Origin: Candidatus Eiseniibacteriota bacterium
Lineage (GTDB): Bacteria; Eisenbacteria; RBG-16-71-46
Reading direction: 5' to 3'
DNA length: 44,800 bases
Assembly: GCA_031370785.1 (NCBI GenBank)
Contig: JANMQY010000053.1
Location: forward strand, 1-44,800
The notes under the pieces: generated by a model
The model's database searches: none
What the model was told of the DNA's origin: nothing
The model's input: only the letters and a program-made list of their open reading frames with translations
Shown: positions 1-35,321 of the stretch, in pieces
How the letters are laid out: each line of letters begins with the position of its first letter
Numbering within the stretch: the first letter of the stretch is position 1
Program-made: the position numbers and the translations under genes

Positions 1-264
1 CGCGAACTCATCGTACGCGGTGCAGAAGATCACCGCCGGCGCCGGCTCGAGCAGCTCCAGCACCTCGAATCCGTCGAGCTTGGGCATCTGCACGTCGAGG
101 AATACCAGATCAGGGTGCAGCTCGCCGATGGTCTTGACCGCTTCGAACCCGTTCACGCATTCGGCGATGACCTGAATCGAGGAATGAGCCAGGAGGTACT
201 CGCGGATCAGCGCCCGCGCAGGCGCTTCGTCGTCCACGATCACGGCGCGCAGCGCGTCAGCCAC
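1..264 (-). CDS. LytTR/AlgR-family response regulator, N-terminal receiver domain (truncated by window edge)
   Basis: Not in ORF track; manual translation from GTG at 264: MADALRAVIVDDEAPARALIREYL...PDLVFLDVQMPKLDGFEVLELLEPAPAVIFCTAYDEFA. Receiver with DD, phospho-D and the TAYD(E)FA motif typical of LytTR regulators; overlaps the stop of the upstream LytS-type kinase. Confidence 0.9.
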   Translation of the reverse strand, partial: MADALRAVIVDDEAPARALIREYLLAHSSIQVIAECVNGFEAVKTIGELHPDLVFLDVQMPKLDGFEVLELLEPAPAVIFCTAYDEFA

Positions 265-1333
265 GGTCCACTTCCTCGCCGTCGAGCGCGGGCAGGGTCA
301 GCGTCACCCGAAACTGCCCATTGGAGCGCTCCGCATCGAGCCGGGCTTCGCGCGAGTCGAACACTTCGAGCCGGCGCCGAACGTTGGCGAGGCCGACGCC
401 TTCGCCCCTGCGCCGCGGGGCGTCCTCCTCGACCGGATTCTCGACCGACAGCCTAAGCGAGTCGCCATGTCGTTGGGTCACGAGCCGCACAGTGCCTCCC
501 GCGACACAGTCCTGGATGCCGTGCTTGATCGCGTTCTCGACCAGCGGCTGCAGCAGCAGCGGCGGCACCTGGCAGCCCGTCACCGACGGGTCGAGAACGC
601 GTTCGATGTGCAGCCGGTCGCCGAAGCGCACCTGCTCGATGTCGAGATAGCGGTCGACCAGCGCCAGCTCCTCGCCGAGCGTGACTGCGTCGCGCGCGCC
701 GAGCGCGAGCGTGCGCCGCAGGAAATCGCCGAGCCCTTCGCACATGCGCCGCGCGCCCTCGGGGTCGGGCCCGACCAGCGCGTTGATCGAGTTGAGGCTG
801 TTGAACAGAAAGTGGGGATTGAGCTGTGCGCGCAGCGCGCGCAGCTCGGCCTCGCGCGCGAAGACCTGCGAGGCGAGCACCAGCCGTTCGGCGGTGTGGG
901 ACGCTTCAAAGGCAAGCACCAGATAGTGGAGCACGACCGAGAGCAGGTAGAGCGGCAGCCCGGCGGCGAACAGGGTCACGGCGTCGCGCAGGATGTCCGC
1001 GCGATCCGGGCCAATGTGAAACCATACCGACAGCGCGACCGCGTAGAGGGTCGAGAGCGCGACCCACACCGCGCTCGACTGGGCCGCGGCCACTATCGCA
1101 TAGAGGATGGCGTTCGCCGCGCGGCTGCCATGCATCGGATGAGCGCGACACACCCACCATGCCGACAGCGCGACGAACCCGAACAGAATCGAGATCGGAA
1201 GCGCGAACACCAGCGCGTCGAACCACGGCCTCGGTGTCACGACCCGCAGCAGCCCGGCGAGCAGCACGCCGTCGGCGAGGCACGTGATCAGATACAGCGC
1301 GAGCCGCGCCGGCTTTGCGAGAAGCGGATGCAC
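257..1333 (-). CDS. LytS/YehU-family sensor histidine kinase (membrane N-terminus + His_kinase + HATPase)
   Basis: About 4 hydrophobic segments, then LRAQLNPHFLFNSLNSI, QPLVENAIKHG and GVGLANVRRRL motifs. Confidence 0.93.
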   Translation of the reverse strand: MHPLLAKPARLALYLITCLADGVLLAGLLRVVTPRPWFDALVFALPISILFGFVALSAWWVCRAHPMHGSRAANAILYAIVAAAQSSAVWVALSTLYAVALSVWFHIGPDRADILRDAVTLFAAGLPLYLLSVVLHYLVLAFEASHTAERLVLASQVFAREAELRALRAQLNPHFLFNSLNSINALVGPDPEGARRMCEGLGDFLRRTLALGARDAVTLGEELALVDRYLDIEQVRFGDRLHIERVLDPSVTGCQVPPLLLQPLVENAIKHGIQDCVAGGTVRLVTQRHGDSLRLSVENPVEEDAPRRRGEGVGLANVRRRLEVFDSREARLDAERSNGQFRVTLTLPALDGEEVDRG

Positions 1334-2182
1334 TCAGTCCTTCCTGTCCTCGGGGTGCCCGCGGCGCTCCGAGCTGCGATCGCGAAACGCGTCCGCGGGA
1401 AACACGATTCCCGCGCGTATCTTGCGGTTTCCCATTTCCTGATTGCGGATCTCGACGCCGCCCATGATCACCATGCCACGGATGACCAGCGTGGTGGTGG
1501 CGCCCTCGGAGACCGGCCGGATGATCTCCTCGACCGCGCCCATGATCGGCGTGACCTCGCAGGCCACGATCCAGTCGTCGGGAACGTAGATTTCGATGCC
1601 GCCCCACGTTGCGAACACATCGACGATCACCTCGCGCTCCGCCGCCTTCGCCCCGCGAAGGTCGAGCTCGACGCCGCCCATGACCGCGGTCACCTCGGCG
1701 CCACGAAGCTGCTGCGATTGAACGCGACGCGTCACGCCGGCCATGAACGCGAGCGCGCGCGGGTAGGGCGAAGCGTCCGACGCTCCGTCGGAACCGGCCT
1801 CTCCGGTTCCCGGCGTGCGCATGGCGCGCATCATGATCGTCACTCCGAGCCCGATCAGGAGCACCGGCCACAGCGACCACAGACCGTGGCGCACCAGACC
1901 CAGCACGCCGAGCAGCAACCACAGGCCTGCGCCCGCGAACAATGCTCCAGCGATCGGAGTGCGATGCGCTCCGATTCCGGTCAGCCGGGCGAGTCCGTAA
2001 ACCAGTAGCAGCACCGGCCACCAGCGCAGGATCGAGCTCGCGTCCAGGACGTGAAGGTTGTCGAGCGTCCACAGCGCGCCGAGGGTCACGAACACCAGAC
2101 CCATCACCAGCCGTGCGGTGAGCGGTGGACGACGGCGGTTGGTTCCGGTAGAGCCGAATCTGTATTCCTGAGCATCAGCCAC
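1334..2182 (-). CDS. LiaF-like cell-envelope stress membrane protein (DUF5668-type TM region + DUF2154-type C-terminal domain)
   Basis: Two 'WP(V)LL' TM repeats; C-terminal AVMGGVELDLR, ATWGGIEIYVPDDW, VIMGGVEIRN repeats typical of LiaF-like proteins. GTG start with GGAGG upstream. Confidence 0.85.
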   Translation of the reverse strand: MADAQEYRFGSTGTNRRRPPLTARLVMGLVFVTLGALWTLDNLHVLDASSILRWWPVLLLVYGLARLTGIGAHRTPIAGALFAGAGLWLLLGVLGLVRHGLWSLWPVLLIGLGVTIMMRAMRTPGTGEAGSDGASDASPYPRALAFMAGVTRRVQSQQLRGAEVTAVMGGVELDLRGAKAAEREVIVDVFATWGGIEIYVPDDWIVACEVTPIMGAVEEIIRPVSEGATTTLVIRGMVIMGGVEIRNQEMGNRKIRAGIVFPADAFRDRSSERRGHPEDRKD

Positions 2183-2495
2183 GGCGCACCTCCCTGCCGG
2201 CCATGTTTCCTTGCATGCGGGTGCCGCGCGCAGAATACGCCCACAGCGCCCCGACCATCAGGGCCGTGGCCAGGAACACCCACAGCCGGACACCGAACCA
2301 GAACGCCACCTTGTAGAGGGCGGCGCCCACCACCGTGACTTCCGGCGCGACGTGCCACGGGATGAACGTAAGCAGCGCCGCATTCTCGAGCACCAGCCAC
2401 ACCGCACACGCCGCCAACGCCACCTCACGCAGCCGGCGCAATCTCTGGTCGGTCGTCCGCACCGGAACTTCCGTGCGGCCGTCAAGCGTCTGCAT
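2175..2495 (-). CDS. small membrane protein of unknown function
   Basis: 106 aa with 2-3 hydrophobic helices; overlaps both neighbours; GGAGG-type RBS upstream of ATG. Confidence 0.7.
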   Translation of the reverse strand: MQTLDGRTEVPVRTTDQRLRRLREVALAACAVWLVLENAALLTFIPWHVAPEVTVVGAALYKVAFWFGVRLWVFLATALMVGALWAYSARGTRMQGNMAGREVRRG

Positions 2496-2856
2496 TGCCC
2501 GCCTCCTTCCCGTACATCACTCGCGCGGCGATCGCGCGCGCCACCATGCCCAACCCGATCGCGACGAATGCGAGCGGCCAGCTATTCATCCAGGTCAGCC
2601 CGTATGCCTCGCGCTGCGCGATCAGGAACCACAAACCGCACAACACCGTCATCACGCCCGAACCGACCCGGCGCGGCGAGCGCGCCACCACCAGCTGAAT
2701 CGCTCCGAGGGCGATGACCAGATACGGCCACCCGCTGCGCCAGAACTCGAGGGGCAGCAGTCCGAACTGGGACAGCAGGAACACCACGCCGATCGCGACG
2801 AGGGTCAGCCCTTCGAAAATGCTGACCTCAGGGTCCTTAGCGCGCTTCGACCGCAT
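2482..2856 (-). CDS. LiaI/LiaF-like (DUF5668-type) four-TM membrane protein
   Basis: GLTLVAIGVVFLL...WPYLVIALG...WPLAFVAIGLG repeated TM motif; AGGGAGG RBS upstream; first gene of the operon. Confidence 0.82.
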   Translation of the reverse strand: MRSKRAKDPEVSIFEGLTLVAIGVVFLLSQFGLLPLEFWRSGWPYLVIALGAIQLVVARSPRRVGSGVMTVLCGLWFLIAQREAYGLTWMNSWPLAFVAIGLGMVARAIAARVMYGKEAGNADA

Positions 2857-4797: not shown

Positions 4798-6090
4798 TTG
4801 CGCGCGCCGGCGGCTGGTCGTGGGTTCGATCGCCTCGCCTACCGCGATCCCACGCCGGTCCCGTGGCTCATCCGCGCCCTCGGGCCGATCAATCGCCAGT
4901 TGGTGCTCCCGCACTGGCTGCGCATCCGCGAGATCGATCTGCCGGCTGCCGACCTCGCGCGTCTGCGCGCCGCGGTGCGGCCGGGCACGGCGGCATTCCT
5001 CGGGCCCAATCATCCCGAGTTCATGACCGACTGGATGCTCGACAAGGAGATCTCGCGCCTGGTCTCCCCGCTCATGGCGCACTGGGCCTCGTACGAGATC
5101 GTGAACGCCTCGCCCATGGCGCAGCGTTTCTGGCTCGCGAACAACCTCATCTCCAACCCGCCGGGCGGGAACGGACGCGAGTACTCGATGCGCTGGGCGC
5201 TGGCCGGCCATGGCGTGCTGCTCCACCCGGAGGGCACCGCGAGCTGGCACGCCGAGCGCGTCGGCCGGCTGCTTCCCGGCATCGTCGAGATGGCGTGGGA
5301 GGCGTGCACCCGCGCGCGAACGGCCGGCCGCGACGTTCCGGTGTTCATCGTGCCGGTGGTGTGGAAGCTCCACTTCACGCATGACGTGTCGCGCGGCCTC
5401 GCGCGCGAGATGGAGCACATCGAGCGCCGGCTCGGGTTGCCTTCGGGCGAAGGGCTGGCCCGCGAGCGCCGCTTCCTCGCATTGCAGGTGAACCTGCTCG
5501 CACGCCAGTGCGCGCGTTTCGAGATCACGGTGCGCGGACTCGGTTCGGCGATCGCGGGGCGCGACTACTTCGACGTGCAAGCCGAAGCCGCAACCCAGGT
5601 GCGACGCCGGCTCGAGGCACGCTATGCGACCGTGGAAGGCGATTTCCCGCGCTTCGAGCGCGCCACCCGGCGCGCGATCCGTGAGCGCATCGCCCATGAC
5701 CCCGAAGGCGCCCGTCGCGACCGTGCACTGCTCGGCGAGCTGCAGCGCCTGCACGGTTTCACCCGGGAGCGCTACCCGGACGAGACGCTCACCCAGGAGC
5801 AGGTCGCCGAGAATCTCAAGCGCACCCGCGCCTCGCTCGTCACCCGCGGATTCGCGGATGCGCTCCACAACACGGTGCCGGTCGCGGTCGGCCCGCGAGT
5901 CGCCCGCATCCGAGTGCCCGAGCCGATCGCGGTGCACGAAGCGTGGAGCGCCGACGCCGCGAGGGGCGAATCGCGTCGCGCCGGGCTGCTCGCCGAGGTT
6001 CACCGCCGCATGCAGCACGCGCTCGATGCGCTCACCCCCGAGATCGCGCCGGTCGTCGACCGATTCCGGATCGCGAATCGCACCGCCTGA
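4798..6090 (+). CDS. lysophospholipid/glycerol acyltransferase-family (LPLAT) protein
   Basis: Catalytic NH(x4)D motif (PNHPEFMTD) and HPEGT block; TTG start is uncertain. Confidence 0.7.
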   Translation: MRAPAAGRGFDRLAYRDPTPVPWLIRALGPINRQLVLPHWLRIREIDLPAADLARLRAAVRPGTAAFLGPNHPEFMTDWMLDKEISRLVSPLMAHWASYEIVNASPMAQRFWLANNLISNPPGGNGREYSMRWALAGHGVLLHPEGTASWHAERVGRLLPGIVEMAWEACTRARTAGRDVPVFIVPVVWKLHFTHDVSRGLAREMEHIERRLGLPSGEGLARERRFLALQVNLLARQCARFEITVRGLGSAIAGRDYFDVQAEAATQVRRRLEARYATVEGDFPRFERATRRAIRERIAHDPEGARRDRALLGELQRLHGFTRERYPDETLTQEQVAENLKRTRASLVTRGFADALHNTVPVAVGPRVARIRVPEPIAVHEAWSADAARGESRRAGLLAEVHRRMQHALDALTPEIAPVVDRFRIANRTA

Positions 6091-10031: not shown

Positions 10032-11201
10032 TCAGCGCACCTTCACGAGAGTCTTCGAGAAGAGCTGTCCTCCGACGCGCAGCGCGGCAAAGTACATCCC
10101 CGGCGCGAGCGATTCCCCCGTCACCAGCGCGCTGTGATCGCCGGCCGGCAGGTTGGCGTCCACCAGCGTGCGCAGCCGCTGCCCCGTGATCGAGTACAGG
10201 CTCAGATTCACGTAGTCGGCCCGCGGCAAGGAGAAGCGCAGCGCGGATGCGATCGAGAACGGATTCGGAATTGCGCCACGGAACTCCACGCTCGCGCTCC
10301 GCGCGACCGGCGCCTGCGCGGCCGGCTCGAGCGCCGGCTGCGCGCTCGCGATCGCGCGATCGAACAGGCTGGGCCGATAGACCGGAGCGATTTCGTTGAC
10401 GCGCGCGATCTGACCGGGCGTGAATTCCGTGTAGCAGGCGTCGTCGGTGTAGTCCATGTAGTTGTGGATCGGATCGTCGCCGGGCTGCGAGCAGGTGTTG
10501 CGACCGAGCGGGCAGCCGAATGCGGGGCTGGCTTCGAACGGTGTGTCGTTGACCTCGTCTCCGGGTTCGACGCAGCCACCCTGGAACGTGTGGAGCAGTC
10601 CGAGATAGTGCCCGCTCTCGTGGACCAGCGTGCCGCCGAGATCGTACGGAGCGAGGAAGCCGCCGGGCACCGAGCCATAGTGGAACACCACGCCGTGGTA
10701 GTAGCTGTCTTCGGGCGCCGAGAATGGGAAGTACGCCCAGCCCAGCAGCCCCTTGCCGGGACTGCACGTGTACACGTTCAGGTGATGCGCGGGATCGATC
10801 GCAAGTGCCTTCTTGGCCTGCTTCTCGGATCCGGTGCCCGGCGCCATGGTGAACCAGTTCTTGTTTTCCGTGCGGTCCACCGAGGAGAGCACGAACCGGT
10901 AGCCGCTCCTCGCGTAGCCCAGATTGAGCACGCGGATCTGGTCCGAGATCTGGCGATCGGTGACGTTGCCTGCTCCGCCCGACATGATGATGTGGAACGC
11001 GACGGGAATCGTGGCGCCGGTCCCGGCTCGCACTTCTCCGGCACGCGCGCGCAGCGCCGCGCGCACTCCGCTTATGACGACGGGGTCGGGATCCGGGGTG
11101 CCACAGGCGCGCAGCAGATGTAGCGGCGCCGCCCCGGAAACGGGTGCGCACAGGCTCAAGGCCGCGAACGCGAACAGAACGGGAACGATGCGGTAACTCA
11201 T
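10032..11201 (-). CDS. secreted M43 (ulilysin/pappalysin-like) zinc metalloprotease with C-terminal FlgD-Ig/T9SS-like domain, copy 1
   Basis: Start at ATG 11201 after GGAGGT; signal peptide; Cys-switch-like CGTP; HESGHYLGLLH (HExxHxxGxxH); Met-turn NYMDY; tail with PNPF...YSITGQRLRTL...PGMYF. Confidence 0.92.
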   Translation of the reverse strand: MSYRIVPVLFAFAALSLCAPVSGAAPLHLLRACGTPDPDPVVISGVRAALRARAGEVRAGTGATIPVAFHIIMSGGAGNVTDRQISDQIRVLNLGYARSGYRFVLSSVDRTENKNWFTMAPGTGSEKQAKKALAIDPAHHLNVYTCSPGKGLLGWAYFPFSAPEDSYYHGVVFHYGSVPGGFLAPYDLGGTLVHESGHYLGLLHTFQGGCVEPGDEVNDTPFEASPAFGCPLGRNTCSQPGDDPIHNYMDYTDDACYTEFTPGQIARVNEIAPVYRPSLFDRAIASAQPALEPAAQAPVARSASVEFRGAIPNPFSIASALRFSLPRADYVNLSLYSITGQRLRTLVDANLPAGDHSALVTGESLAPGMYFAALRVGGQLFSKTLVKVR

Positions 11202-11330
11202 GGCGACCTCCGGGAAAGTTGGCACTCGATCGGGGCGGTGACGCGGCATGTTGACCCGGTCGGAATGCTTTGGTGACCACTCTATGGTCTCGCCGCGGCC
11301 GCAAGCGCGCCACTGGAAAGTCGGCGCTGC

Positions 11331-11834: not shown

Positions 11835-12163
11835 GTCAGGGCGGATCTTCGGTGCTCGTTTATAGGTGCCAAACAGGTTTCAACCCCTCTGGAAGTCGAG
11901 AAGGCAGGCCGATTGTCAACTCTCTGACGCGCAGGTAAAGAATCCGTGACATGCGGGCTTGATGATGGTTGATTGCGGGCAGTCACGGTCGGGCCAATGA
12001 GCCCCGCCATTGCCGCCAACATCCCCTTGCTGCACGCGAAATCAACGACCGACATCGCCCCGAGTCCAAATCACCCCCTTCATCCCTCTTGGACCCCCGA
12101 GAGGCCTCGCTTCACCCGGAGTCAAATCTCCCAGGTTTCTCCCCCACTCCCCAGGAGGCAGCC

Positions 12164-15142
12164 ATGATCAGCGTTTCCCGTTTGGTGTTCCGCGCGGTCG
12201 CCCTGTGCGCCATTGCCGGAGGGGCATTCACCGCCGTGGCCGCTGCCGCGGCGCTCCAGGATCAGATCAATCCATGGCCGAACGATCTGTCACCCTCCGG
12301 GCTGCGCGCGGCGGCGTCGATCAGCAACGATCCCGCGCTACAGGCCGCGCTTCCCGAGGGCGCCCTCGAGGCGGTGCAGCGCTACGTCGCCGACACGCGC
12401 GCGCTCGGGTTCGAGCACGGCCACCGGCTCCTCTACATCCCGGGGCCGACGAACGTCATGGCGAACAATCCCGCGGGTGACAGAATCGGCGAGACCCAGT
12501 CCGAGGTCTCGGTCGCGGTGTTCCGCGACACGGTCGTCATCGGCTGGAATGACTCGAGGGGCTTCGTCGCCGGCAATACGATCTCGAGCTACGCCTATTC
12601 CACCAACGGCGGCGCCAGCTTCGTCGATGGCGGCAACGTGCCGCTCGCCCTGCCCACCGACCAGTGCTTTGGAGACACGGGCTGGGATACGGACGAGAGT
12701 GGCCACTGGTACCTGGGCCAGATCTATACGCGCACGGCGGGAAACCCCAATCCGACCGCGGAGCAGGATGTCGCTGTCCATCACGCGGGCTTCGTGGCGG
12801 GCGTGCTCGTGCTCGATCCGCCGGTCGTGGCCTCGATCGGTACGACGGCGACCGGGAATCTCGACAAGTGTCTGCTCGCCTGTGACAAGGTGACGGGCAA
12901 CGTGTACTTTGCCTACACGCGCTTCACCGCGATCCCCCAGATTGAGATCGTGCGTTCGACGACCCGGGGCACGAGCTGGAGCGCCCCGATCGTGCTCGAC
13001 AACACGACGACCCCAACCTCGTCCAAGCAGGCGGCACGACCGTTCTGCGGTCCGAACGGTGAGGTCTACGTCGTGTGGGAGAAGGGTGCAAACCTGATTA
13101 ATTGCCCGGACGGCGGGGGAAATCTCACCCCGACGCAGGCCCAGATCGCATTCACCCGCTCGCTCAACTTCGGCGCAAGCTACGACCCCCTGAGTGTCAT
13201 AGGAAACCCGTACTCCTCCTTCATGTGGTCCGGGCCGGGCGACAATCGCGAGCGCGCGAACGACTTCCCCGACATCGCGGTGGACATCTCGGACAAATGT
13301 TACAGGGGCAACATCTACGTGACCTGGCACGAGTCGGCGTTCTGGAACGCCAACGTAAGTGCCGGACCGGCGAAGGTCGAAGCCAACGACGCCGCCAACA
13401 ATAATCCGACGGGCCCCGAACTGTTCAGCGTCGGGGACGACTGCACCGGCTCGATCAGTTCGACGGGCGACTTCGACTACTGGCAGTTCAACGCCGTGCA
13501 GGGCCAGAGCTACCTCATGGTGCTCGATCCGCAAGGCTTCGTGTGCGGCCTGACCGGCACGAGCAGGGCGATGCGTATGCAGCTTTTCGCCGTCACCACT
13601 CCCTATCCCAATCCGACAGGCTTCCCGGACTCGGTGCTTGCGGCTTCAGGGCAGGGCACCTTCGAGGACCGGATCGTTTGGACCTGCCCCACCACCGGGC
13701 CCTATGTCATGCGCCTGCGGCGAGGCTCGTCCGGCACGGCGCCCTTCACGTACAATATGACCGTCCGTCCGCTGACCTTCAGCCCCGGCCAGCCACGCGA
13801 CGGGCGTGACGTCGTCCTGGTGAAGTCGTCCGACCAGGGCACCACCTGGAGCTCCGAGCAGCGCGTCAATGACGATGCTGCCGGGCTCGAGAACCGCCGG
13901 CCTTTCGTCGCCGTCAACAGCAGCGGGCAGGTCAGCATCTACTGGCACGACTCGCGGGACGCCGGCTTCGGCTCGAGCGCGTCCCTGACGAGCGTCTACG
14001 GCACGACCTCGCGCGATGGCGGCGCGACCTGGTTGGCGAATTACGCAGTGACCGACGAGCTGTCGTTCTTCTCGCTCAACTCCCTCGCGATTCCCAACCT
14101 CGGCGACTACAACCAGGCCGCCGCGCGCGGCACACCGATCTTCCATCCAGGGTGGTCGGATCAGAGGATCTCCTCGGGGGACGTGCGCACCCCCGGCACG
14201 AACACCTATACAGCCGGCCGCGGCCCCGACGCCTTCACGACCGGCATTTCGTTCTTCATGACCGCGATGTGTCCTCCGGACACGATCGGCTCGCCGGGGT
14301 CAAACGTGGTCCGGGTATTCAGGATCGTCAACAACAGCTCGGTCCCCGACGGCTACAACTACTCGATTACCGATACCGGCGGGTACATTGGCGGCCCGAT
14401 CAACGGCAGCACGACCCTGCTCGCGGCGGGCGATATCGCCTACATCTTCGTAACCGCCTTCGTGCCCGTCGACTGCAATCCCCCCCAGGATATCATCACG
14501 TTCTCGGTGCTTCCCAAGGGCGAGGGCTGCTTCGCGCCCCAGGTGTGCCAGACCAGGATTTTCTGCGACTTGGTGACCGCGACGCTGATCTCGCGCTTCG
14601 ACGCCGCACCCGCGGCGGCCGGCGTGGACCTCACATGGTCGTCGGACGCGGTGGGTCAGATCGTGGCGTGGAACGTCTACCGGACGACAACGGAAGGCGG
14701 CGCCTGGACGCAGATCAACGCTGAGCCCATCGCGATGGGAAGCGGCGGCCAGTTCCGTCTCCATGACGACGTCGTTGCGACGGGGACGCTCTTCTATCGC
14801 CTCGGTGCCGTGCTATCTGATGGCCGCGAGCGAGCCGTGGGCCTGACCCAGTTCGCCTCGGCGGCCGGACCGTTCTCGTTCGCGATCGCGGGGAGTAACC
14901 CGTTCCAGGGCAGGACCACGTTGCGCTACGCGCTGCCTTCGGCCGAACGCGTGCGGATCGACGTCTACAGCGTGAGCGGACAGCGGGTGCGCACGATCAT
15001 GGACCGGACCGAAGCCCCCGGGGTCCACACCGTGGACTTCGCGCTGCGCGGCGAGGGCCAGTCGCTCAAGCCGGGGCTCTACCTGGTGCGCATCCAGGCG
15101 GGTTCGAATCAGAAATCGGTGCGACTGATCGCTCTCGACTAG
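12164..15142 (+). CDS. large secreted multidomain protein: Asp-box (BNR/sialidase-like) propeller, inserted PPC-like domain, Ig-like region, FlgD-Ig/T9SS-like tail
   Basis: Start at ATG 12164 after AGGAGG; signal peptide; Asp-boxes STNGGASF, STTRGTSW, SLNFGASY, SSDQGTTW, SRDGGATW; GSISSTGDFDYWQF PPC-like motif; tail SNPF...YSVSGQRVRT...KPGLY. Confidence 0.82.
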   Translation: MISVSRLVFRAVALCAIAGGAFTAVAAAAALQDQINPWPNDLSPSGLRAAASISNDPALQAALPEGALEAVQRYVADTRALGFEHGHRLLYIPGPTNVMANNPAGDRIGETQSEVSVAVFRDTVVIGWNDSRGFVAGNTISSYAYSTNGGASFVDGGNVPLALPTDQCFGDTGWDTDESGHWYLGQIYTRTAGNPNPTAEQDVAVHHAGFVAGVLVLDPPVVASIGTTATGNLDKCLLACDKVTGNVYFAYTRFTAIPQIEIVRSTTRGTSWSAPIVLDNTTTPTSSKQAARPFCGPNGEVYVVWEKGANLINCPDGGGNLTPTQAQIAFTRSLNFGASYDPLSVIGNPYSSFMWSGPGDNRERANDFPDIAVDISDKCYRGNIYVTWHESAFWNANVSAGPAKVEANDAANNNPTGPELFSVGDDCTGSISSTGDFDYWQFNAVQGQSYLMVLDPQGFVCGLTGTSRAMRMQLFAVTTPYPNPTGFPDSVLAASGQGTFEDRIVWTCPTTGPYVMRLRRGSSGTAPFTYNMTVRPLTFSPGQPRDGRDVVLVKSSDQGTTWSSEQRVNDDAAGLENRRPFVAVNSSGQVSIYWHDSRDAGFGSSASLTSVYGTTSRDGGATWLANYAVTDELSFFSLNSLAIPNLGDYNQAAARGTPIFHPGWSDQRISSGDVRTPGTNTYTAGRGPDAFTTGISFFMTAMCPPDTIGSPGSNVVRVFRIVNNSSVPDGYNYSITDTGGYIGGPINGSTTLLAAGDIAYIFVTAFVPVDCNPPQDIITFSVLPKGEGCFAPQVCQTRIFCDLVTATLISRFDAAPAAAGVDLTWSSDAVGQIVAWNVYRTTTEGGAWTQINAEPIAMGSGGQFRLHDDVVATGTLFYRLGAVLSDGRERAVGLTQFASAAGPFSFAIAGSNPFQGRTTLRYALPSAERVRIDVYSVSGQRVRTIMDRTEAPGVHTVDFALRGEGQSLKPGLYLVRIQAGSNQKSVRLIALD

Positions 15143-15200: not shown

Positions 15201-17180
15201 TCATGCGCCGCCGGGACGCAGTGCGCCCAGGGCCGCCAGTACGCGCCGCGCGAAGTCGGTGAGCGAAGGGTCGCGCGCCCCCATCACCAGCACCAGGTCG
15301 CCCTCGCGTGCCACCTCGGCGACGCGCGCGATCAGCCATTCGCGCGAAGGCGCGAACTCGGCGGCACAACCGCGCGCGGCGATCTCGCCGACCATGTCGG
15401 CTGCCGAGAAGTCACGCTGCGCGGTGCCGCCGGCGTAGAAGATCTCGAGCAGCCACAGCCGGTCCTCCGGCCCCAGGGACGAGACGAAGCTCTCGACGAA
15501 ATCGCGTCTCAGGAATCGGGTCGGCCCGTAGCCGTGCGGCTGGTAGATTGCGAGCACGCGCGCGGCGCGGCGGCGCGCAGTTTCGATTGCCGCGGTCACC
15601 TTGGTCGGATTGTGGGCGAAGTCGTCCACCACCTCGATCCCGCGCGTGCGGCCGAGTGACTGGAAGCGGCGGCCCACACCCTCGAAGGCGGCGAGCGGCG
15701 CCACCATGTCCGCGAGCGGCACTCCGACCGCACGACAGGTCGCGATCGCGGCCAGGGCGTTCTCAACGTTATACCTCCCGGGCGCAGGCAGCGTGAATCG
15801 GACTCCCCCGACCTGGAAGACGCTGCCATCCGGCCCAAGATCGACACCCTCGCCGCGCACGTCGCTGCGCGGGCCGAAGCCGAACACGGTGCCGCCGGCC
15901 GCCAGATCGGCGAGCCGCGGGTCCTCGCCCGCGACGAACGCTTCGCGCGTCCGGCGGCGCAGGGTCGCGAACATCGCGGCGACCTCGTCCATCTCGCGAT
16001 GATCGCGCTGCAGATTGAGCACCACGCCGACGGCGGGCGCGTAGCGCACCAGCGAGCCGTCGCTCTCATCGGCCTCGACCACGAGCAGATCCGATCCGCC
16101 ATACCAGGCGTTTCCCCACAGCCCCTCACGCTGCAGCATCACCAAGTCCCCGCCGGTGATCACCGACGGCTTGAGCCCGGCGCCGCGCAGGATCTCGAAC
16201 GTCATCGCGACGACCGAAGACTTGCCGCTGGTGCCGCTGATCGCGATGGTGCGGTGCCTCGCGACGAAATGCGCGAGCAGCTCGCTTCGGTGCACGACCG
16301 GCACTCCGCGCGCGCGCGCCGCGACCATGTCAGGCACTTCGGCCTCGACCGCGGTCGAGACCACGAGCGCCGCGCAATCCTCCCCGACCCCGCTTCCGTC
16401 CTGAGCGTGGATCGTGATGCCGCACTTCTCGAGCTGCGCGCGCGAAGCGGTGCGCTCGCCGCGGTCGAACGATCGATCGCTGCCGCTCGCGCGACCGCCG
16501 GTCATGCTCTGGAACTGGGCGAGCGCGCTCATGCCGCTGCCCGCGAGCCCGGCGTAGTGAAAGCGCCCGGCGCCGAGCGGATCGGGCACGCTCGCCGCAT
16601 CGTCGGGGACGATCAGAACGCGGTCACCCTCGGCGACGCGCTCGTGCAGCTCGATCACGTCGCGATTCGACAGGCGCACGCAGCCGTGCGAGTCCGGCGT
16701 GCCGAGCGCGCCCTCGTGGTTGGTGCCGTGCAGGTAGACGTAGCGCTCGAGCGAGTCCACACCCGGGCCGCGGTTGACGCCCTCCTCGAGGCCCTCGAGC
16801 GTCAGCACGCGGGTCAGGATCAGGTCTTCCTTCTGCGGCTCGCCGCGCCACACCACTCCGGTCGCGACCCGGCTCTCGAATACCGCTCCGCTGGGCGCGC
16901 CGGCCCCGATCCGCGCGTGAATGCCATGCCACCCGGGCGGAGTCCTGAGCGAGCCCGACTCGCTGCCGACGCCGGCGGCCGCGGTCGAAACCGCGTATTC
17001 GCCGATCACCTCGCCACGCTCGATCAGCGCGAGACGCTGGCGGCGAACGTCGACCAGCAACACCCGGCCAGGCGCGGACCCGACCGGAAGGCCGGTGGCG
17101 GATGCGCTCGAGGCGTGTTCGAGGGCAGCGCCGAGCAGCGCGAGGTCGCGTTCTCGGGCAAGAGCGGTGGGAACGAGCAT
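15201..17180 (-). CDS. fusion: YkuD/L,D-transpeptidase-fold domain + MurC/Mpl-like Mur ligase
   Basis: One uninterrupted ORF. N-terminal YLHGTNHEGALGTPDSHGCVRL; C-terminal GLAGSGMSALA, SGTSGKSS, EADESDGS, GRYNVEN, GVGRRF, DDFAHNP, YQPHG, MGARD. Start ATG 17180 or GTG 17198. Confidence 0.88.
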   Translation of the reverse strand: MLVPTALARERDLALLGAALEHASSASATGLPVGSAPGRVLLVDVRRQRLALIERGEVIGEYAVSTAAAGVGSESGSLRTPPGWHGIHARIGAGAPSGAVFESRVATGVVWRGEPQKEDLILTRVLTLEGLEEGVNRGPGVDSLERYVYLHGTNHEGALGTPDSHGCVRLSNRDVIELHERVAEGDRVLIVPDDAASVPDPLGAGRFHYAGLAGSGMSALAQFQSMTGGRASGSDRSFDRGERTASRAQLEKCGITIHAQDGSGVGEDCAALVVSTAVEAEVPDMVAARARGVPVVHRSELLAHFVARHRTIAISGTSGKSSVVAMTFEILRGAGLKPSVITGGDLVMLQREGLWGNAWYGGSDLLVVEADESDGSLVRYAPAVGVVLNLQRDHREMDEVAAMFATLRRRTREAFVAGEDPRLADLAAGGTVFGFGPRSDVRGEGVDLGPDGSVFQVGGVRFTLPAPGRYNVENALAAIATCRAVGVPLADMVAPLAAFEGVGRRFQSLGRTRGIEVVDDFAHNPTKVTAAIETARRRAARVLAIYQPHGYGPTRFLRRDFVESFVSSLGPEDRLWLLEIFYAGGTAQRDFSAADMVGEIAARGCAAEFAPSREWLIARVAEVAREGDLVLVMGARDPSLTDFARRVLAALGALRPGGA

Positions 17181-17212
17181 GGGCGCACACTGTGCCACAC
17201 GCCGCGCGCCGC

Positions 17213-17248
17213 GGAAAACGAACGGGGCCGGTCTTGCGACCGGCCCCG
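17213..17248 (-). terminator. rho-independent terminator of M43 protease copy 2
   Basis: Perfect 11-bp stem CGGGGCCGGTC/GACCGGCCCCG with a GCAA tetraloop on the minus strand, followed by TTCGTTTT. Confidence 0.8.
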
Positions 17249-17283
17249 CGCTGGTCCGAGACGATCCCGGATGCGGCCCGCGA

Positions 17284-18492
17284 TTATCTGACCAGAATCA
17301 CGCTGCGCACGACCTGAGCGTCGCTGCCGACGCGCAGCGCCATGAAATACATGCCGGGAGCCAGGCCATTCGCGCGGAATTCGACCGCGTGATCGCCGGC
17401 CTCTGCGTCGCGATCCAGCAACGTCGAGACCAGCTGGCCGGCGACGTTGTAGACCTTGAGCGAAACGTAATCGCTCCTGGGCAGCGAGAACCTGACGCTG
17501 GTGGCGCCCGAGAACGGATTGGGAGCCGCTCCCCGGAATGCCACGGTGCGCGAGAGCGTGGGCGTACCCGCCGTCGGCGTCGCATCGGGCTTCGCCGCCA
17601 TCTGTGGCGCGGCCGCGTTCAGCAGGCTCGGCCGGTACACCGGAACCTGCGAATCCATGCGCACGTCCTGGCCCGCGGTGAACTGCGTGTAGCAGGCATC
17701 GTCCGAGTAATCCATGTAGTTGTGGATCGGATCGAGACCGGCCGTCGGGCAGGTGTCCTTCCCGCTCGGGCAGCCGGAGGTCGAAGTCGCCTCGTCCGGC
17801 GTGTCCGCGACCTGGTCGCCGGGCGCGGTGCAGCCGTTCTGGAATGTGTGATAGAGACCGAGGTAGTGCCCCACCTCGTGATCGAGCGTGCCACCCAGGT
17901 TGTACGGGGCGAGGTATCCGCCCGGCACCGAGCCGTAGTGAAACACAACGCCGTGGTGCCAGTCACCTTCGGGATACGAACTCGGGAAGTAGGCCCAGCC
18001 GAGCAGATTCTGACCCGGCGCGCAGGTGTACACGTTCAAGCGATGGGGAATGTCGGTCGCCAGCGCCTGCTTGGCCTGCCGTTCCGAGGCCGTCCCGGGC
18101 GTCATCTTGAACCACTTGCTGTTGCTGGTGCGGCTCACGCTCGCGAGCACGAACGTGTAGCCGGTATTCGCACCGCCGTAGAAACCCGAATAGGCCTTGT
18201 TGAGCTCGGCGATCTGCGCGTCGATCTGTGACTGCGGGATGTTGCCGGTCGATCCGCTGTAGATCACGTGGAACGCGACCTTGATCTGGCCGCCCACGGC
18301 CTGCGCGCCGAACTCATCCACGTAGCGCTTCAGAGCCGCGCCCTCGGCGAACTGCTCCGAAATGCTCGGTGTGGGAGTGCCGCACACACGCTCGGGCCCT
18401 CCGCCGGCATCGGACTCGGGCAGCTTCAGCGCGAACGCCGAACCTGCGGTGCACAGCAACAGAGCGACGGGAAGGAGAAGTCTGACCTTCAT
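17284..18492 (-). CDS. secreted M43 zinc metalloprotease with C-terminal FlgD-Ig/T9SS-like domain, copy 2
   Basis: Start at ATG 18492 after GGAGGT (MKVRLLLPVALLLCTAGSAFA signal peptide); CGTP; HEVGHYLGLYH; NYMDY; PNPF...YNVAGQLVSTL...PGMYF. Confidence 0.93.
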   Translation of the reverse strand: MKVRLLLPVALLLCTAGSAFALKLPESDAGGGPERVCGTPTPSISEQFAEGAALKRYVDEFGAQAVGGQIKVAFHVIYSGSTGNIPQSQIDAQIAELNKAYSGFYGGANTGYTFVLASVSRTSNSKWFKMTPGTASERQAKQALATDIPHRLNVYTCAPGQNLLGWAYFPSSYPEGDWHHGVVFHYGSVPGGYLAPYNLGGTLDHEVGHYLGLYHTFQNGCTAPGDQVADTPDEATSTSGCPSGKDTCPTAGLDPIHNYMDYSDDACYTQFTAGQDVRMDSQVPVYRPSLLNAAAPQMAAKPDATPTAGTPTLSRTVAFRGAAPNPFSGATSVRFSLPRSDYVSLKVYNVAGQLVSTLLDRDAEAGDHAVEFRANGLAPGMYFMALRVGSDAQVVRSVILVR

Positions 18493-19239: not shown

Positions 19240-19314
19240 TGGCTCCTCGGGTAGGATTCGAACCTACAACCCTCCGGTTAACAGCCGGATGCTCTGCCGT
19301 TGAGCTACCGAGGA
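19240..19314 (-). tRNA. tRNA-Asn (GTT)
   Basis: Reverse complement TCCTCGGTAGCTCAACGGCAGAGCATCCGGCTGTTAACCGGAGGGTTGTAGGTTCGAATCCTACCCGAGGAGCCA: 75-nt cloverleaf, GTT anticodon, TTCGAAT T-loop, encoded CCA. Confidence 0.98.
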
Positions 19315-28952: not shown

Positions 28953-29534
28953 CTAGCCGGTCTTGACTCCGGTCTTGCCGCGCCGCTTGGCAGGCGCAGC
29001 CGCGCCAGCCTTCTTCTTCTCTCGCGACGGCTTCTCCGCCGGCGCGTCGCCCGCTTCGGCCCTGGCCTCGCTCTTCGCCTTCTTGCCCGGCTTCTGACCG
29101 GGCTTCTGGCCCTTGAGCGCGGCTTCCTTCGCCTCGGCCGCCTCGATCCGCTTCTGGCGCTCCTGCTCCTTCTGCTCGGTCGACTTCACCAGCTCGAGGT
29201 AGGCGGTCTCGCCGGCATCGCCGAGCCGGTGCCCGAGCTTGAGGATGCGCGTGTAGCCGCCGTGGCGCTCGGTGTACCAGGGAGCGATCGTGGTGAACAG
29301 CTTGTCGGCGATGGCGGGCTTCATGACGAACTTCGCGACATGGCGACGGGCCGCGATGTCGCCCTGCTTGCCGAACGTGATCATGCGCTCGGCGTAGCGC
29401 CGGGTTTCCTTGGCCTTGGCCAGCGTGGTCTCGATGCGCTCGTATTCGAAGAGCGCGGTGACCAGATTCCTGAGCACCGCACGCCGATGAGAAGCGGTGC
29501 GGCTCAGCTTGCGATGGTCTTTGCGGTGTCGCAT
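28953..29534 (-). CDS. rplQ: 50S ribosomal protein L17 with C-terminal extension
   Basis: MRHRK..KLSRT.SHR, GGYTRILK; position after rpoA. Confidence 0.98.
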   Translation of the reverse strand: MRHRKDHRKLSRTASHRRAVLRNLVTALFEYERIETTLAKAKETRRYAERMITFGKQGDIAARRHVAKFVMKPAIADKLFTTIAPWYTERHGGYTRILKLGHRLGDAGETAYLELVKSTEQKEQERQKRIEAAEAKEAALKGQKPGQKPGKKAKSEARAEAGDAPAEKPSREKKKAGAAAPAKRRGKTGVKTG

Positions 29535-29583
29535 GTCAGCGTGTCCTTCTGTCGTTCGTCGTGGACCGGAGAGCCACTGCTTC

Positions 29584-30576
29584 CTAGCTCTCCGAGCTCA
29601 CCGGGTTCTTTTCGTAGTAGGGGCTGATGTCCATGCCGAAGACCAGGCCCATCTCGCCGAGGATGTCCTGGATCTCCTTGAGCGACTTGCGGCCGAAGTT
29701 GCGGTACTTGAGCATCTCCGGCTCGCCCTTCTGCACCAGGTCGCCGATGGTCTTGATCTCGGCGGCACGCAGGCAGTTGCTCGAGCGCACCGACAGCTCC
29801 AGCTCCTCGACGCTCTTGTCCAGCATGCGGCGCACCCGCATCAGCTCCTCGTCGACCTCCAGCTCCACTTCCTGCTCGATCGGCTCTTCGAAGTGAATGA
29901 ACAGCTGGAAGTGATCGCGCAGGATCTTGGCCGCAACCGCGACCGCGTCCGACGGCAGGATGCTGCGGTCGGTCCACACCTCGACGGTGAGCTTGTCGTA
30001 GTCGATGCGCTGGCCGAGGCGCGCGGCTTCGACCGTGTAGTTCACCTTGGTGACCGGCGAGAACATCGAGTCGATCGGAACCACTCCGATAGGCCGGTCG
30101 GTGGCCGAGTGCTGATCGGCCGAGACGTAGCCGCGGCCGCCGTTGATCTCGACTTCGGCGCGCAGGTCGCCGTCACGGTTCAGGGTCGCGATGTGCAGGT
30201 CGGGATTCAACACCTCGACCTCGGCGTCGACCTGCAGATCGCCGGCGCGCACCTCGCCCTTGCCCTTCAGCTCGAACGTGCCCTTCTTGGGCCCGTCGCC
30301 GTGCAGCTTGAGCCGCACCTGCTTGAGATTGAGGATGATCTCGGTGACGTCTTCGATCACTCCCGGGAGGGTCGAGAACTCATGGAGCACGCCGTCGATA
30401 CGCACCGCGGTGATCGCGGCGCCCTGCAGTGACGAGAGCAGGACGCGACGCAGCGAATTGCCGAGGGTCGTGCCGAAGCCGCGCTCCAGCGGCTCGATGA
30501 CGAACTTGCCGTAGCCGTCGTTGTTGCCGGCATCGGGCACGAGCTGCTTGGGCATGGTCAGATTCTTCCACTTCAT
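29584..30576 (-). CDS. rpoA: RNA polymerase alpha subunit
   Basis: [45 protein letters not shown]. Confidence 0.99.
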
Positions 30577-30622
30577 AGGCAGCCTCCGAATGAGAAGGCG
30601 ATCGGTTCGGACAAGTCGATCG

Positions 30623-31252
30623 TTACTTCGAGTAGAGCTCGACGATGAGCTGCTCGTTCACCGGCACCGGGATGGAAGCACGCGTCGGAACGTTCAACAC
30701 GCGGCCGCTCATCTTCTCGACGCTCAGATCGAGCCACTCCGGCACGCTTTGGCCCTTGCGGCCCTCGAGCGCGTTCTGCACGACTACCAGCTTGCGACTC
30801 TTCTCGCGCAGCGACACTTCGTCGCCGGCCTTGACCAGGTACGATGGAATGTCGACCGGCTTTCCGTTCACGCTCAGGTGGCCATGGCTCACCAGCTGAC
30901 GCGCGGAGGCGCGGTTCGGCGCGAAGCCCAGGCGGAAGACCACGTTGTCGAGCCGCGTCTCCAGGAACTGGAGCAGGGTCTCGCCGGTCACGCCCTTCGA
31001 AGCCGCGGCTTTGTAGAAGTAGTTACGGAACTGGCGCTCGAGCACGCCGTAGATCCGGCGCGCCTTCTGCTTCTCGCGCAGCTGCTGGCCGTAGTTGGTC
31101 TCCTTGGCGCGCCGGCTCTTGCCATGCTCGCCCGGAGCGTAGGAGCGCCGCTCCATGGCGCACTTGTCGCTCATGCAGCGCGTTCCCTTGAGGAACAGCT
31201 TCATGCCTTCGCGGCGGCACAACCGGCACTTCGCATCGTGATAGACAGCCAT
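30623..31252 (-). CDS. rpsD: 30S ribosomal protein S4
   Basis: [39 protein letters not shown]. Confidence 0.99.
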
Positions 31253-31261
31253 GGTCCTCTC

Positions 31262-31648
31262 CTAGACGCGGCGCCGCTTGGGAGCGCGGCAACCGTTATG
31301 CGGAATGGGCGTCACGTCCTTGATCGCGGAGATCTCGAGGCCGGCCGCCTGCAGCGAGCGGATGGCGGCCTCGCGACCCGCGCCCGGGCCCTTGACCCAG
31401 ACCTCGACGCGCTTCATGCCGAGATTGAGCGCCTCGCGTGCGCTCGCCTCCGCCGCGACCTGTGCGGCGAACGGCGTGCTCTTGCGCGAGCCCTTGAAGC
31501 CGACCTTGCCCGCACTGGCCCAGGTGACCACGGCCCCGTCCATGTCGGTGATGGTGACGATCGTGTTGTTGAAGCTCGCCTGCACGTGAGCGACCCCGTT
31601 GGTTCCCACCTTGCGGTCGCGCTTCTTCGTCTTTTTTACTTCAGCCAC
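31262..31648 (-). CDS. rpsK: 30S ribosomal protein S11
   Basis: [26 protein letters not shown]. Confidence 0.99.
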
Positions 31649-31711
31649 TCGAAACCTCCGTTCGGGTCGCGCCGCGGAGCCGACTCATGCGGAATCCGCG
31701 CACCCCCTCGA

Positions 31712-32149
31712 CTATGACTTCTTCGGTCCTGTCCCGGCCCCGGCACCGGCGCCTGCTCCGGCCTTCGGCGCGACGGTTGTCGCCTTCCTCGTAGCGCCCG
31801 CGGTCTTCTTCGGGCCCTTGCGCGTACGCGCGTTGGTCTTGGTGCGCTGTCCGCGCACCGGAAGCCCGCGGCGGTGACGCAGGCCGCGGTAGGCGCCGAT
31901 ATCCATCAGGCGCTTGATGTTCATGGCCATCTCGCTGCGCAGCGAGCCTTCGACCTTGTACTCGCGTTCGATCACGCCGCGCAGTTTTCCGGTGTCCTCG
32001 TCGGTGAGGTTCTTCACCCGGGTGTCCGGACTCACGCCGGTCGCGGCCAGAATGCGACGGGCTGTGGTATTCCCGATTCCATAGATGTAGGTCAGCGCGA
32101 CTTCAATCCGCTTCTCCGCCGGCAAGTCGACGCCCGCAATACGTGCCAC
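31712..32149 (-). CDS. rpsM: 30S ribosomal protein S13
   Basis: [41 protein letters not shown]. Confidence 0.99.
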
Positions 32150-32164
32150 AGGCTTCCTCCTTCG

Positions 32165-32281
32165 CTACTTCTGACGCTGCTTATGCCGCGGATTGCGCGT
32201 GCAGATCACGCGGATCACGCCCTTGCGACGCACCACCTTGCAATGCTCGCAGATCTTCTTCACCGAAGTACGAACCTTCAT
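32165..32281 (-). CDS. rpmJ: 50S ribosomal protein L36 (Zn-binding type)
   Basis: Below ORF-track cutoff; manual translation [38 protein letters not shown]. Confidence 0.98.
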
Positions 32282-32337
32282 GTTGCTCCCTCGTGCGCCG
32301 TGGTCCTGGATGCGACAGGCGCCCTTGCTGGGGACGA

Positions 32338-32556: not shown

Positions 32557-32569
32557 ACCGACTCTCCTG

Positions 32570-33325: not shown

Positions 33326-33331
33326 GTTTCT

Positions 33332-33994: not shown

Positions 33995-33995
33995 G

Positions 33996-35315: not shown

Positions 35316-35321
35316 GGGTCC

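Follow-up and report, generated by a model that had tools for sequence, protein, structure and literature searches.

The 44,800-nucleotide stretch analysed here (hereafter the window; positions 1 to 44,800, forward strand, of contig JANMQY010000053.1 in GenBank assembly GCA_031370785.1, from a Candidatus Eiseniibacteriota bacterium) carries on its minus strand an open reading frame (ORF) of 665 amino acids (aa) in which a YkuD-fold domain is joined to a complete Mur ligase. An earlier note on this DNA, made from the sequence alone, had proposed a single ORF at 15201..17180 with an intact YkuD motif at about 16680-16730 and a short linker leading into a full three-domain Mur ligase, and this description stands. 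The frame is uninterrupted from a GTG start at 17198 to a stop codon at 15201-15203, the end coordinate given before being an alternative ATG six codons in, and its GC content at third codon positions (GC3) of 0.86 matches that of the neighbouring genes. All four Pfam domains, YkuD, Mur_ligase, Mur_ligase_M and Mur_ligase_C, exceed their gathering cut-offs (23.4 bits for YkuD), the linker (VPDDAASVPDPLGAG) lies where it had been placed, and the catalytic motif is found as HGT at residues 157-159 and SHGC at residues 170-173 (16680-16691) (Table 1).

Table 1. Features of the fused gene, in window coordinates (pLDDT, predicted local distance difference test; pTM, predicted template modelling score).
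Feature	Position	Strand	Basis
Whole ORF, 665 aa	15201..17198	-	ORF and GC3 0.86; model mean pLDDT 88.6, pTM 0.89
N-terminal 44 residues with confident amphipathic helix (residues 12-31)	17067..17198	-	Hydropathy and structure model; not a membrane segment or signal peptide by hydropathy
YkuD-fold domain, ElsL-like, residues 45-196; candidate cytoplasmic L,D-carboxypeptidase	16611..17066	-	PF03734, 68.3 bits; NF040925, 126.7 bits
HGT motif H157-G158-T159, YkuD active site	16722..16730	-	Invariant in 47/47 aligned fused proteins
SHGCVR motif S170-H171-G172-C173-V174-R175, catalytic C173	16674..16691	-	Alignment of fused proteins and short relatives
Linker, residues 197-212, contains VPDDAASVPDPLGAG	16563..16610	-	Counterpart of the N-terminal extension of the separate ligase ORF in split relatives
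Mur ligase N-terminal (UDP-sugar-binding type) domain, residues 213-315	16254..16562	-	PF01225, 48.6 bits
Mur ligase middle (ATPase) domain, residues 320-487, MurC-like EADESDGS	15738..16241	-	PF08245 and conservation
P-loop G322-T-S-G-K326-S within the middle domain	16218-16235	-	Conservation
Mur ligase C-terminal (incoming amino acid/peptide) domain, residues 510-642	15273..15671	-	PF02875, 72.7 bits
Clade signature 1, DDFAHNPT (MurC: DDYGHHPT)	15603..15626	-	Alignment to 1gqq
Clade signature 2, YQPHGYGPTR (MurC: FQPHR[YF][ST]RT)	15516..15545	-	Alignment to 1gqq
Hairpin resembling a terminator, stem of 12 bp with 10 G-C pairs, separating the upstream M43 peptidase gene from the fused ORF	17222..17249	-	Consensus scan only

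The fusion junction is real and not an artefact. In several relatives the two halves lie in different frames or a stop codon is present, which could be taken as a sign of an assembly or frameshift error or of a decaying gene, yet we give such a reading practically no credence. The full four-domain architecture is present in 120/120 best matches among 5.8 billion proteins (66-98% identity, 615-713 aa; those with a named source mostly from Candidatus Eisenbacteria), fused forms recur in other phyla, and the linker region (16560-16620) is bridged without insertion or deletion by independent contigs from four public runs of two studies, all sediment metagenomes, of which the run that holds the stretch best may be the window's source sample; one contig of 2310 nt covers 16200-17000 with two substitutions. 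Residues H157, G158, T159, S170, G172 and C173 are invariant in 47 aligned fused proteins, as are the ligase P-loop glycines, Q553-P-H-G556 and P559-T-R561, while H171 and R175 are kept in 90% or more; among the matches listed, short YkuD relatives have HGT in 119/119 and SHGCxR in 119/119. An AlphaFold2 model built on the alignment of fused proteins is confident over the whole chain, and its pTM of 0.89 suggests that the YkuD domain holds a defined position against the ligase. Judged by the intact catalytic motifs and the predicted fold, both halves look active. Between them, the shared architecture, the invariant residues and the indel-free contigs refute the artefact for practical purposes.

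Hydropathy gives no indication of a membrane segment in the protein, as the largest Kyte-Doolittle mean over 19 residues is 1.54 and falls inside the ligase. The earlier note had denied the protein a signal peptide, a lipobox and a transmembrane helix, and hydropathy agrees with it on the membrane segment. Residues 12-31 form a confident helix in the structure model, and the N-termini of relatives are rich in arginine. Being fused to a ligase that depends on ATP and a UDP-sugar argues for a cytoplasmic location of the YkuD domain.

By profile comparison the YkuD half is specifically ElsL-like, as the earlier note had suggested. The NCBIfam ElsL model (NF040925) matches it with 126.7 bits (E 7e-37, profile positions 8-158 of 164) and is the best NCBIfam model of YkuD type by about 100 bits, against at most 26.5 bits, over the catalytic motif only, for models of periplasmic L,D-transpeptidases (E. 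coli LdtA-E type). The score does not reach the narrow ElsL cut-off of 270, and the YkuD half is therefore not classed as ElsL itself. In the window's genome the fused protein is the sole match to the ElsL model; the genome's other YkuD protein (contig C94), which serves as a control, scores 250.8 bits on the LdtD-type model and has no ElsL match. Six ligase-linked YkuD domains from elsewhere (Nitrospirota, Fibrobacteraceae, Syntrophus, Krumholzibacteriia, Chitinispirillum and a split Eisenbacteria gene) all behave alike, with 120-136 bits on ElsL and at most 33 bits on the periplasmic models. The low periplasmic scores speak against a periplasmic L,D-transpeptidase of that type. A protein atlas returned only generic Pseudomonadota YkuD clusters of 172-178 aa (score 0.92), which is a lead and not a test. 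In the passages of Dai et al. (2021, PMC8649774) that concern it, ElsL of Acinetobacter is a cytoplasmic L,D-carboxypeptidase that trims recycled tetrapeptides before Mpl.

The ligase half belongs to the Mur superfamily, with its three Pfam domains and, in 50 members of the clade described below, invariant G116, G119, K120, E169, E172, D193, H194, N274, D320 and H323 (ligase-part numbering). The earlier note had spoken of a MurC/Mpl-like ligase. Of this, the likeness to MurC is upheld; the ligase is neither Mpl nor an intermediate between the two, as tree and motifs place it in a distinct MurC-derived clade. The Mpl model TIGR01081 reaches 103.9 bits, in two pieces, against a cut-off of 388.7, and the MurC model TIGR01082 271.4 bits against a cut-off of 335.1; E. 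coli MurC (2f00) matches with 172 bits and Psychrobacter Mpl (3hn7) with 76. Foldseek with the full model, which listed ligase structures only, places substrate-bound Haemophilus influenzae MurC first (1p3d; template modelling (TM) score 0.86-0.87 on the target, root-mean-square deviation 2.7-2.9 Å, 28% identity) and Mpl 3hn7 at rank 22. A motif of the type (S/T)AFFDKRSK after EADE is given as Mpl-specific in the relevant part of PMC3060825; it is absent from the window's ligase, which reads EADESDGSLVRY (MurC-like) where E. coli Mpl reads EADEYDCAFFDKRSK. Score, missing motif and tree position, with Mpl as the outgroup, thus dispose of Mpl identity. Housekeeping MurC identity is likewise ruled out, since the canonical MurC of this genome (522.4 bits) is encoded on contig C102 in the division and cell wall (dcw) cluster, between murD and ftsA-ftsZ; judged from equivalent pairs in relatives, the two are about 37% identical. 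No Mpl above the cut-off was found in the window's genome by profile search.

The residues of H. influenzae MurC that the same source, in its account of the site, thinks to contact the incoming L-Ala are Tyr346, His348, His376, Arg377 and Arg380 (PMC3060825). In the alignment to 1gqq the corresponding residues of the window's ligase are Phe, His, His, Gly and Pro, and His349 has become Asn; the equivalents of Arg377 and Arg380 are thus lost, as they are in E. coli Mpl (Ser, Met). The two pocket motifs accordingly read DDFAHNPT and YQPHGYGPTR in the window's ligase, DD[YF][GA]HHP and FQPH[RQL]xxR in canonical MurC (E. coli, this genome, Nitrospirota, Bacteroidota, Elusimicrobiota and Planctomycetota), and DDFAHHPT and LEPRSNTM in E. 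coli Mpl (b4233). Arginine at position 380 occurs in all canonical MurC rows of the motif comparison, and the pattern PHxxxR fits 19 of 20 canonical rows.

These comparisons assign the ligase to a large MurC-derived clade that has no name and whose amino-acid pocket is altered. In a quick maximum-likelihood tree (IQ-TREE, LG+G4, 127 rows, E. coli Mpl as outgroup) 105/105 clade-type ligases form one clade with SH-aLRT 100 and a stem of 0.69, and 20 canonical MurC rows fall outside it. Both signatures occur in 136 of the best 150 representatives from a search of 1.84 billion cluster representatives (127/136 among those of at least 420 aa), the canonical pair in none of the 150; most of these are stand-alone proteins of about 460 aa with 34-60% identity. 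NCBI has no model for the clade, and of 12 members scanned seven score under the MurC cut-off and five just over it (338-352 bits), the latter therefore being named MurC by NCBI. Searching species-representative genomes for the pattern DD[FY]AHNPxK gave, from the 600 stretches listed, the 80 loci on which all counts out of 80 below are based; by title they come from Eisenbacteria, Armatimonadota, Fibrobacterota, Elusimicrobiota, Krumholzibacteriia, Bacteroidota, Nitrospirota, Planctomycetota, Myxococcota and Syntrophaceae. When whole genomes were checked, one Chryseobacterium, one Chitinophagaceae and three Nitrospirota genomes proved to have the clade paralog in addition to a canonical MurC, and of 26 Planctomycetota genomes 23 have a canonical MurC and four have both types. 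One Planctomycetota genome (G185, locus L155), which has no canonical MurC at E 1e-50 or better, has as its only MurC-like match a protein of 224 bits with an Mpl-like second motif, FDPRNASS, that branches basally beside the E. coli Mpl outgroup, outside the MurC clades.

The surroundings of the clade ligases differ from those of a housekeeping murC. FtsA, FtsZ, MraY or segments taken as FtsW and MurG stand beside the ligase in 0/80 loci. A true murD lies nearby, on the opposite strand, in four Elusimicrobiota loci, and a MurF-like match lies near the ligase in three Flavobacteriales loci. Apart from YkuD, the most frequent neighbour is a cluster without annotation (cluster 1, 12/80 loci), every other cluster occurring in at most eight; annotated clusters are lineage-specific (asd, dapB, dapA, a sigma-54 activator, an amidohydrolase and others). 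Seven long relatives (P0270, P0197, P0127, P0133, P0130, P0128 and P0168) were searched for an extra informative domain and none was found. At one of these Flavobacteriales loci, from a metagenome-assembled genome (MAG), the MurF-like ligase is fused to a complete alanine racemase in an ORF of 816 aa (L059:3824-6271), about 2 kb from the clade ligase and on the opposite strand.

The clade is also associated with L,D-carboxypeptidases. An ElsL-like YkuD is present in 27/80 loci, directly upstream on the same strand in 26 and about 5.6 kb away in the other (L045). In-frame fusions account for 14 of these loci (eight Nitrospirota, three Syntrophaceae, Syntrophus or 'delta proteobacterium', one Fibrobacteraceae and two uncultured); in the remaining YkuD loci the two halves lie in different frames, seven of them with stop/start overlaps of 4-53 nt (Eisenbacteria, Fibrobacterota, Krumholzibacteriia). 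At one such locus (L043) a YkuD ORF of 189 aa overlaps a ligase ORF of 505 aa by 4 nt, and the extra N-terminal stretch of this ligase is the counterpart of the fused protein's linker. The fusion is hence not confined to the window's organism: it recurs in Nitrospirota, Syntrophaceae and Fibrobacterota, and other lineages have the split pair. In the window's phylum, most genomes of the window's own family have the fused form, and adjacent separate ORFs are found in genus g16 (3/3 genomes) and in genomes G044, G082, G137 and G141. Stand-alone YkuD proteins at 60-76% identity are exactly 194 aa long in 48 of the 119 listed. On the grouping of an earlier tree, since replaced, the fused forms would need at least three state changes, which suggests that fusion or fission happened more than once.

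In three protein clusters a second, unrelated fold of L,D-carboxypeptidase is fused to the same ligase type at the other end. P0254 (742 aa) consists of a clade ligase (DDYAHNPE, FQPHGFAPTK) followed by a complete S66 enzyme (Peptidase_S66 at 467-584, S66C at 615-731); P0401 (83% identical, 11 member sequences) and P0402 (45% identical, from an Alphaproteobacteria MAG, on a 42.5-kb contig; DDFGHNPA and FQPHGFSALR) share this architecture. This type of ligase has thus been joined to L,D-carboxypeptidases of two unrelated folds, to YkuD at its N-terminus and to S66 at its C-terminus. A further protein met in these searches, P0405 (1016 aa), joins an S66 L,D-carboxypeptidase to glycoside hydrolase family 3 domains (PF00933, PF01915; NagZ-like), apparently another two-step recycling fusion.

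Across genomes the ligase and a carboxypeptidase occur together. We searched 151 genomes of the phylum (G000 included) for the ligase half, with the E-value threshold set so as to leave out canonical MurC, for the YkuD half and for Peptidase_S66, and cross-tabulated the results by hand (Table 2). All 104 ligase carriers have an ElsL-like YkuD or an S66 protein (103/103 without G015, of family f2, whose removal alters no other figure), and 36 of the 47 non-carriers have neither, the other 11 having a candidate (one YkuD at a contig end, ten S66). YkuD and S66 replace one another by family: YkuD is found in 54/59 genomes of f1 and 0/32 of f7, S66 in 0/59 and 31/32, respectively. Where a genome of the phylum has both halves, the YkuD is always fused to or beside the ligase, G049 and G089 being contig breaks; S66 genes that share a contig with the ligase are not adjacent to it (about 54 kb in G102, 157 kb in G054 and 15 kb in G151). 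The only clade-type ligase in f8 (G013:C15:27506-28948) has in-frame stops, one TGA and one TAA, and may be a decaying copy.

Table 2. Genomes with each search target, by family of the phylum (G000 excluded).
Family	Genomes	Ligase	YkuD	S66
f1	59	53	54	0
f2	6	5	1	6
f3	3	3	3	0
f5	2	1	1	0
f7	32	27	0	31
f8	5	1 (stop codon)	0	5
f10	10	9	2	10
f14	1	1	0	1
f15	1	1	1	0
f16	2	2	2	0
f4, f6, f9, f11, f12, f13, f17	29	0	0	0

Outside the phylum, the five genomes checked were all as predicted: S66 accompanies a ligase without YkuD in one genome each of Chryseobacterium, Chitinophagaceae and Isosphaeraceae, a Nitrospirota genome with the fused form has no S66, and an Elusimicrobiaceae genome has no S66 and no YkuD next to its ligase. 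Of 41 Nitrospirota genomes sampled, five carry the ligase within a frame of 643-661 aa, exactly these five have YkuD in that frame, and none of them has S66. The window's own genome, 100% complete by marker genes, gave no match to an S66 LdcA and contains AnmK.

The setting of the fused gene in the window adds little to this picture. Upstream lies a gene for a secreted M43 peptidase and downstream a convergent gene for a BNR/FlgD-Ig protein; none of the neighbours has a relation to the cell wall. The terminator-like hairpin upstream and the convergent gene downstream suggest that the fused ORF forms its own transcription unit and is monocistronic. A promoter scan, by consensus only, found no promoter-like site at the gene, and there is no RNA run among the public runs listed as containing this stretch. 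Other features of the window are recorded here for their own sake. Two M43 (pappalysin-type) metallopeptidase genes and the BNR/FlgD-Ig gene lie around the fused gene (10035-11249 (-), 12161-15139 (+) and 17287-18483 (-)), and a Por-secretion (T9SS-type) C-terminal sorting domain is present on the upstream M43 peptidase and, below the Pfam cut-off, on the BNR/FlgD-Ig protein. A cluster at 260-2856 (-) encodes a protein with a His_kinase domain and two membrane proteins resembling LiaF/LiaI (Pfam: cell-wall-active antibiotic response); it lies about 12 kb away and has no evident link to the fused gene. The window further contains an ordinary ribosomal protein gene cluster (28956-44650 (-)), which follows the S10-spc-alpha order and includes secY, adk, map and rpoA, a tRNA-Asn (GTT) at 19240-19314 (-), and an ORF of 430 aa at 4798-6087 (+) whose codon bias resembles that of a gene (GC3 0.87) and which matches no Pfam family at E 0.001 or better.

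We consider it fairly probable, from comparison of sequences, that the window's protein is a trim-and-religate enzyme for the recycling of peptidoglycan peptides, analogous to LdcA or ElsL acting with Mpl. LdcA followed by Mpl in E. coli, and ElsL followed by Mpl in Acinetobacter, do the same job of trimming and then ligating. Here, the ElsL-like YkuD domain, with Cys173 and His157, would cut the bond between meso-diaminopimelate (meso-DAP) and D-Ala of an imported tetrapeptide, be it free, on anhydro-N-acetylmuramic acid (anhydro-MurNAc) or on UDP-MurNAc, releasing D-Ala and leaving a tripeptide; the MurC-derived ligase would then join the tripeptide to UDP-MurNAc at the expense of ATP, and the resulting UDP-MurNAc-tripeptide would be taken on by MurF. 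Having both activities in one chain would prevent the ligase from making dead-end UDP-MurNAc-tetrapeptide. Inferred here are the activities of both domains, the identity of the peptide substrate, which step comes first, and any channelling from one domain to the other. The earlier note had likewise coupled an ElsL-like carboxypeptidase to a peptide-reusing ligase, and sequence comparison supports it here through the ElsL-like YkuD half, the linkage of the ligase to carboxypeptidases of two folds by fusion, adjacency and co-occurrence, and a genome with a separate MurC and neither LdcA nor Mpl. More broadly, and with a little less assurance, we lean towards regarding the AHNP/PHG[FY]xP ligases as a MurC-derived family of murein peptide ligases, an independent analogue of Mpl present in at least ten phyla or classes, partnered with whichever of YkuD or S66 the lineage has and fused to each separately, the window's protein being a single-chain trim-and-religate machine with its active sites in a fixed arrangement. 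We found no description of a YkuD-Mur ligase fusion or of this MurC-like clade in the open-access literature.

Several observations weigh against this interpretation. One alternative is that the ligase is a second MurC isozyme adding L-Ala (or Gly or L-Ser), with the ElsL-like domain serving the same pathway without feeding the ligase, for example by trimming or proof-reading tetrapeptide-bearing precursors. By sequence and fold the ligase resembles MurC, with 271 bits on the MurC profile against 104 on that of Mpl, a MurC structure as the best match and the AFFDKRSK motif missing, and some clade members pass the NCBI MurC cut-off (338-352 against 335 bits). Genes of precursor synthesis adjoin the ligase in some lineages (dapA, dapB, asd, murD and the murF-alr fusion), and MurC-Ddl and MurF-Alr fusions join non-consecutive steps; the fusion at L059 is a case in point, and under the isozyme reading the YkuD fusion would do likewise. 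In seven of 26 Elusimicrobiota genomes, moreover, the clade-type ligase (316-331 bits) is the only one and there is no canonical MurC, whereas the other 19 have one canonical MurC (517-546 bits) and none has both at E 1e-50 or better; since those seven presumably make peptidoglycan, the clade scaffold can serve as MurC and presumably adds L-Ala there. These only-MurC ligases nest deep in the clade, within a group of 14 rows that has HA[FH]xS instead of HG[FY]xP, and the five that were fetched (loci L145-L147, L163 and L164; genomes G172, G161, G175, G166 and G178) read DDFAHNP-H and FQPHAFTSVQ. Their changed second motif, together with the finding that the one Elusimicrobiaceae only-MurC genome searched (G152) has neither S66 nor a YkuD beside the ligase, speaks against the isozyme for the remainder of the clade, and we infer that this lineage represents a secondary takeover of the MurC role by the paralog. 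Carriers of PHG[FY]xP that were checked genome-wide mostly have a canonical MurC as well, one Isosphaeraceae genome (G155), which showed the clade-type ligase only, being the exception; the clade also lacks the equivalent of Arg380 that canonical MurC keeps, and a plain duplicate of MurC would leave the tight, exclusive link to two unrelated L,D-carboxypeptidase folds unexplained. We therefore regard a second MurC as unlikely, though it deserves to be taken seriously.

Other points bear on the recycling pathway as a whole. Neither AmpG (TIGR00901) nor an AmpD-type Amidase_2 was matched in the window's genome, so that no import or amidase step can be assigned, and AnmK, present in 117/151 genomes, does not track the module: families without it have AnmK (f4 7/7, f9 5/5, f12 2/2), and f10, in which the module is present, has it in 0/10. 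S66 occurs without the ligase in ten genomes of the phylum and in five of Nitrospirota, and two of the seven Nitrospirota ligase carriers (G227 and G218) have neither YkuD nor S66, only a stand-alone clade member and a canonical MurC, so that the rule of a carboxypeptidase partner holds in five of seven. Related genomes are not independent, and the co-occurrence counts consequently overstate the evidence, the family rows of Table 2 being the fairer count. A pocket unlike that of both MurC and Mpl, and an ElsL match below its cut-off, would also fit a different chemistry, in which the ligase takes a different peptide (dipeptide, tetrapeptide or a stem without DAP) or a different UDP-sugar acceptor, or in which YkuD, acting in the cytoplasm as an L,D-transpeptidase, exchanges the terminal residue and does not hydrolyse it; YkuD enzymes are capable of exchange reactions. 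This we hold to be distinctly improbable, given that the N-terminal UDP-binding domain and the MurC-like core are conserved and that the characterised members of the S66 partner family are, by their Pfam names, L,D-carboxypeptidases, which points to hydrolytic trimming and not to exchange. Trimming followed by religation of the peptide remains the reading that we favour.

Direct reuse of peptidoglycan peptides, by LdcA or ElsL and then Mpl, is established mainly in gammaproteobacteria, and many lineages are thought to do without it for want of Mpl. A preprint on Caulobacter states, in the part that treats this question, that direct peptide reuse is absent in species without LdcA and Mpl (10.1101/2025.10.15.682734). 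If the clade described here is the missing peptide ligase, recycling would extend to Eisenbacteria, Nitrospirota, Fibrobacterota, Bacteroidota, Planctomycetota and others, making it far more widespread than the distribution of Mpl suggests, and thousands of entries named MurC or L,D-transpeptidase would be mis-described. The clade would also constitute a natural case of a Mur ligase pocket that shifted from amino acid to peptide and, in Elusimicrobiota, apparently back. We anticipate that the two independent fusions may serve as an experimental handle, each offering in one soluble protein two predicted activities that can be assayed.

Among known systems, ElsL of Acinetobacter baumannii is the counterpart of the YkuD half, with which it shares a short YkuD-fold domain, the His/Cys catalytic motif and a genome without LdcA; ElsL has no export signal, and in the window's protein hydropathy shows no membrane segment. 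ElsL is a stand-alone protein with a separate Mpl, whereas the window's domain is fused to its ligase, or translationally coupled with it in relatives; this YkuD type occurs in unrelated phyla, and its carboxypeptidase activity is predicted from sequence. MurC is the closest relative of the ligase half in sequence and fold, with the P-loop, EADESD and DxxHxP motifs in common. The window's ligase differs from it in scoring below the MurC cut-off, in forming a separate clade, in lying outside the dcw cluster in addition to a canonical MurC, and in having AHNP and PHG[FY]xP in place of GHHP and PHR[YF][ST]R. With Mpl it shares the three Mur domains, the loss of the two MurC arginines at the L-Ala site, the proposed ATP-dependent ligation of a recycled stem peptide to UDP-MurNAc and an L,D-carboxypeptidase partner, yet it is without AFFDKRSK, and its branch falls inside MurC or adjacent to it; should it ligate peptides, its type would have come to do so independently of Mpl. 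The same two-step logic is proposed as for LdcA (Peptidase S66) and Mpl of E. coli, and in sister families S66 takes the place of YkuD as the partner and is itself found fused to ligases of this type in P0254, P0401 and P0402, although the window's protein has the YkuD fold and not S66, and its genome has no S66 match. The protein described here would represent known reactions carried out by a new lineage of ligase in a new fused architecture.

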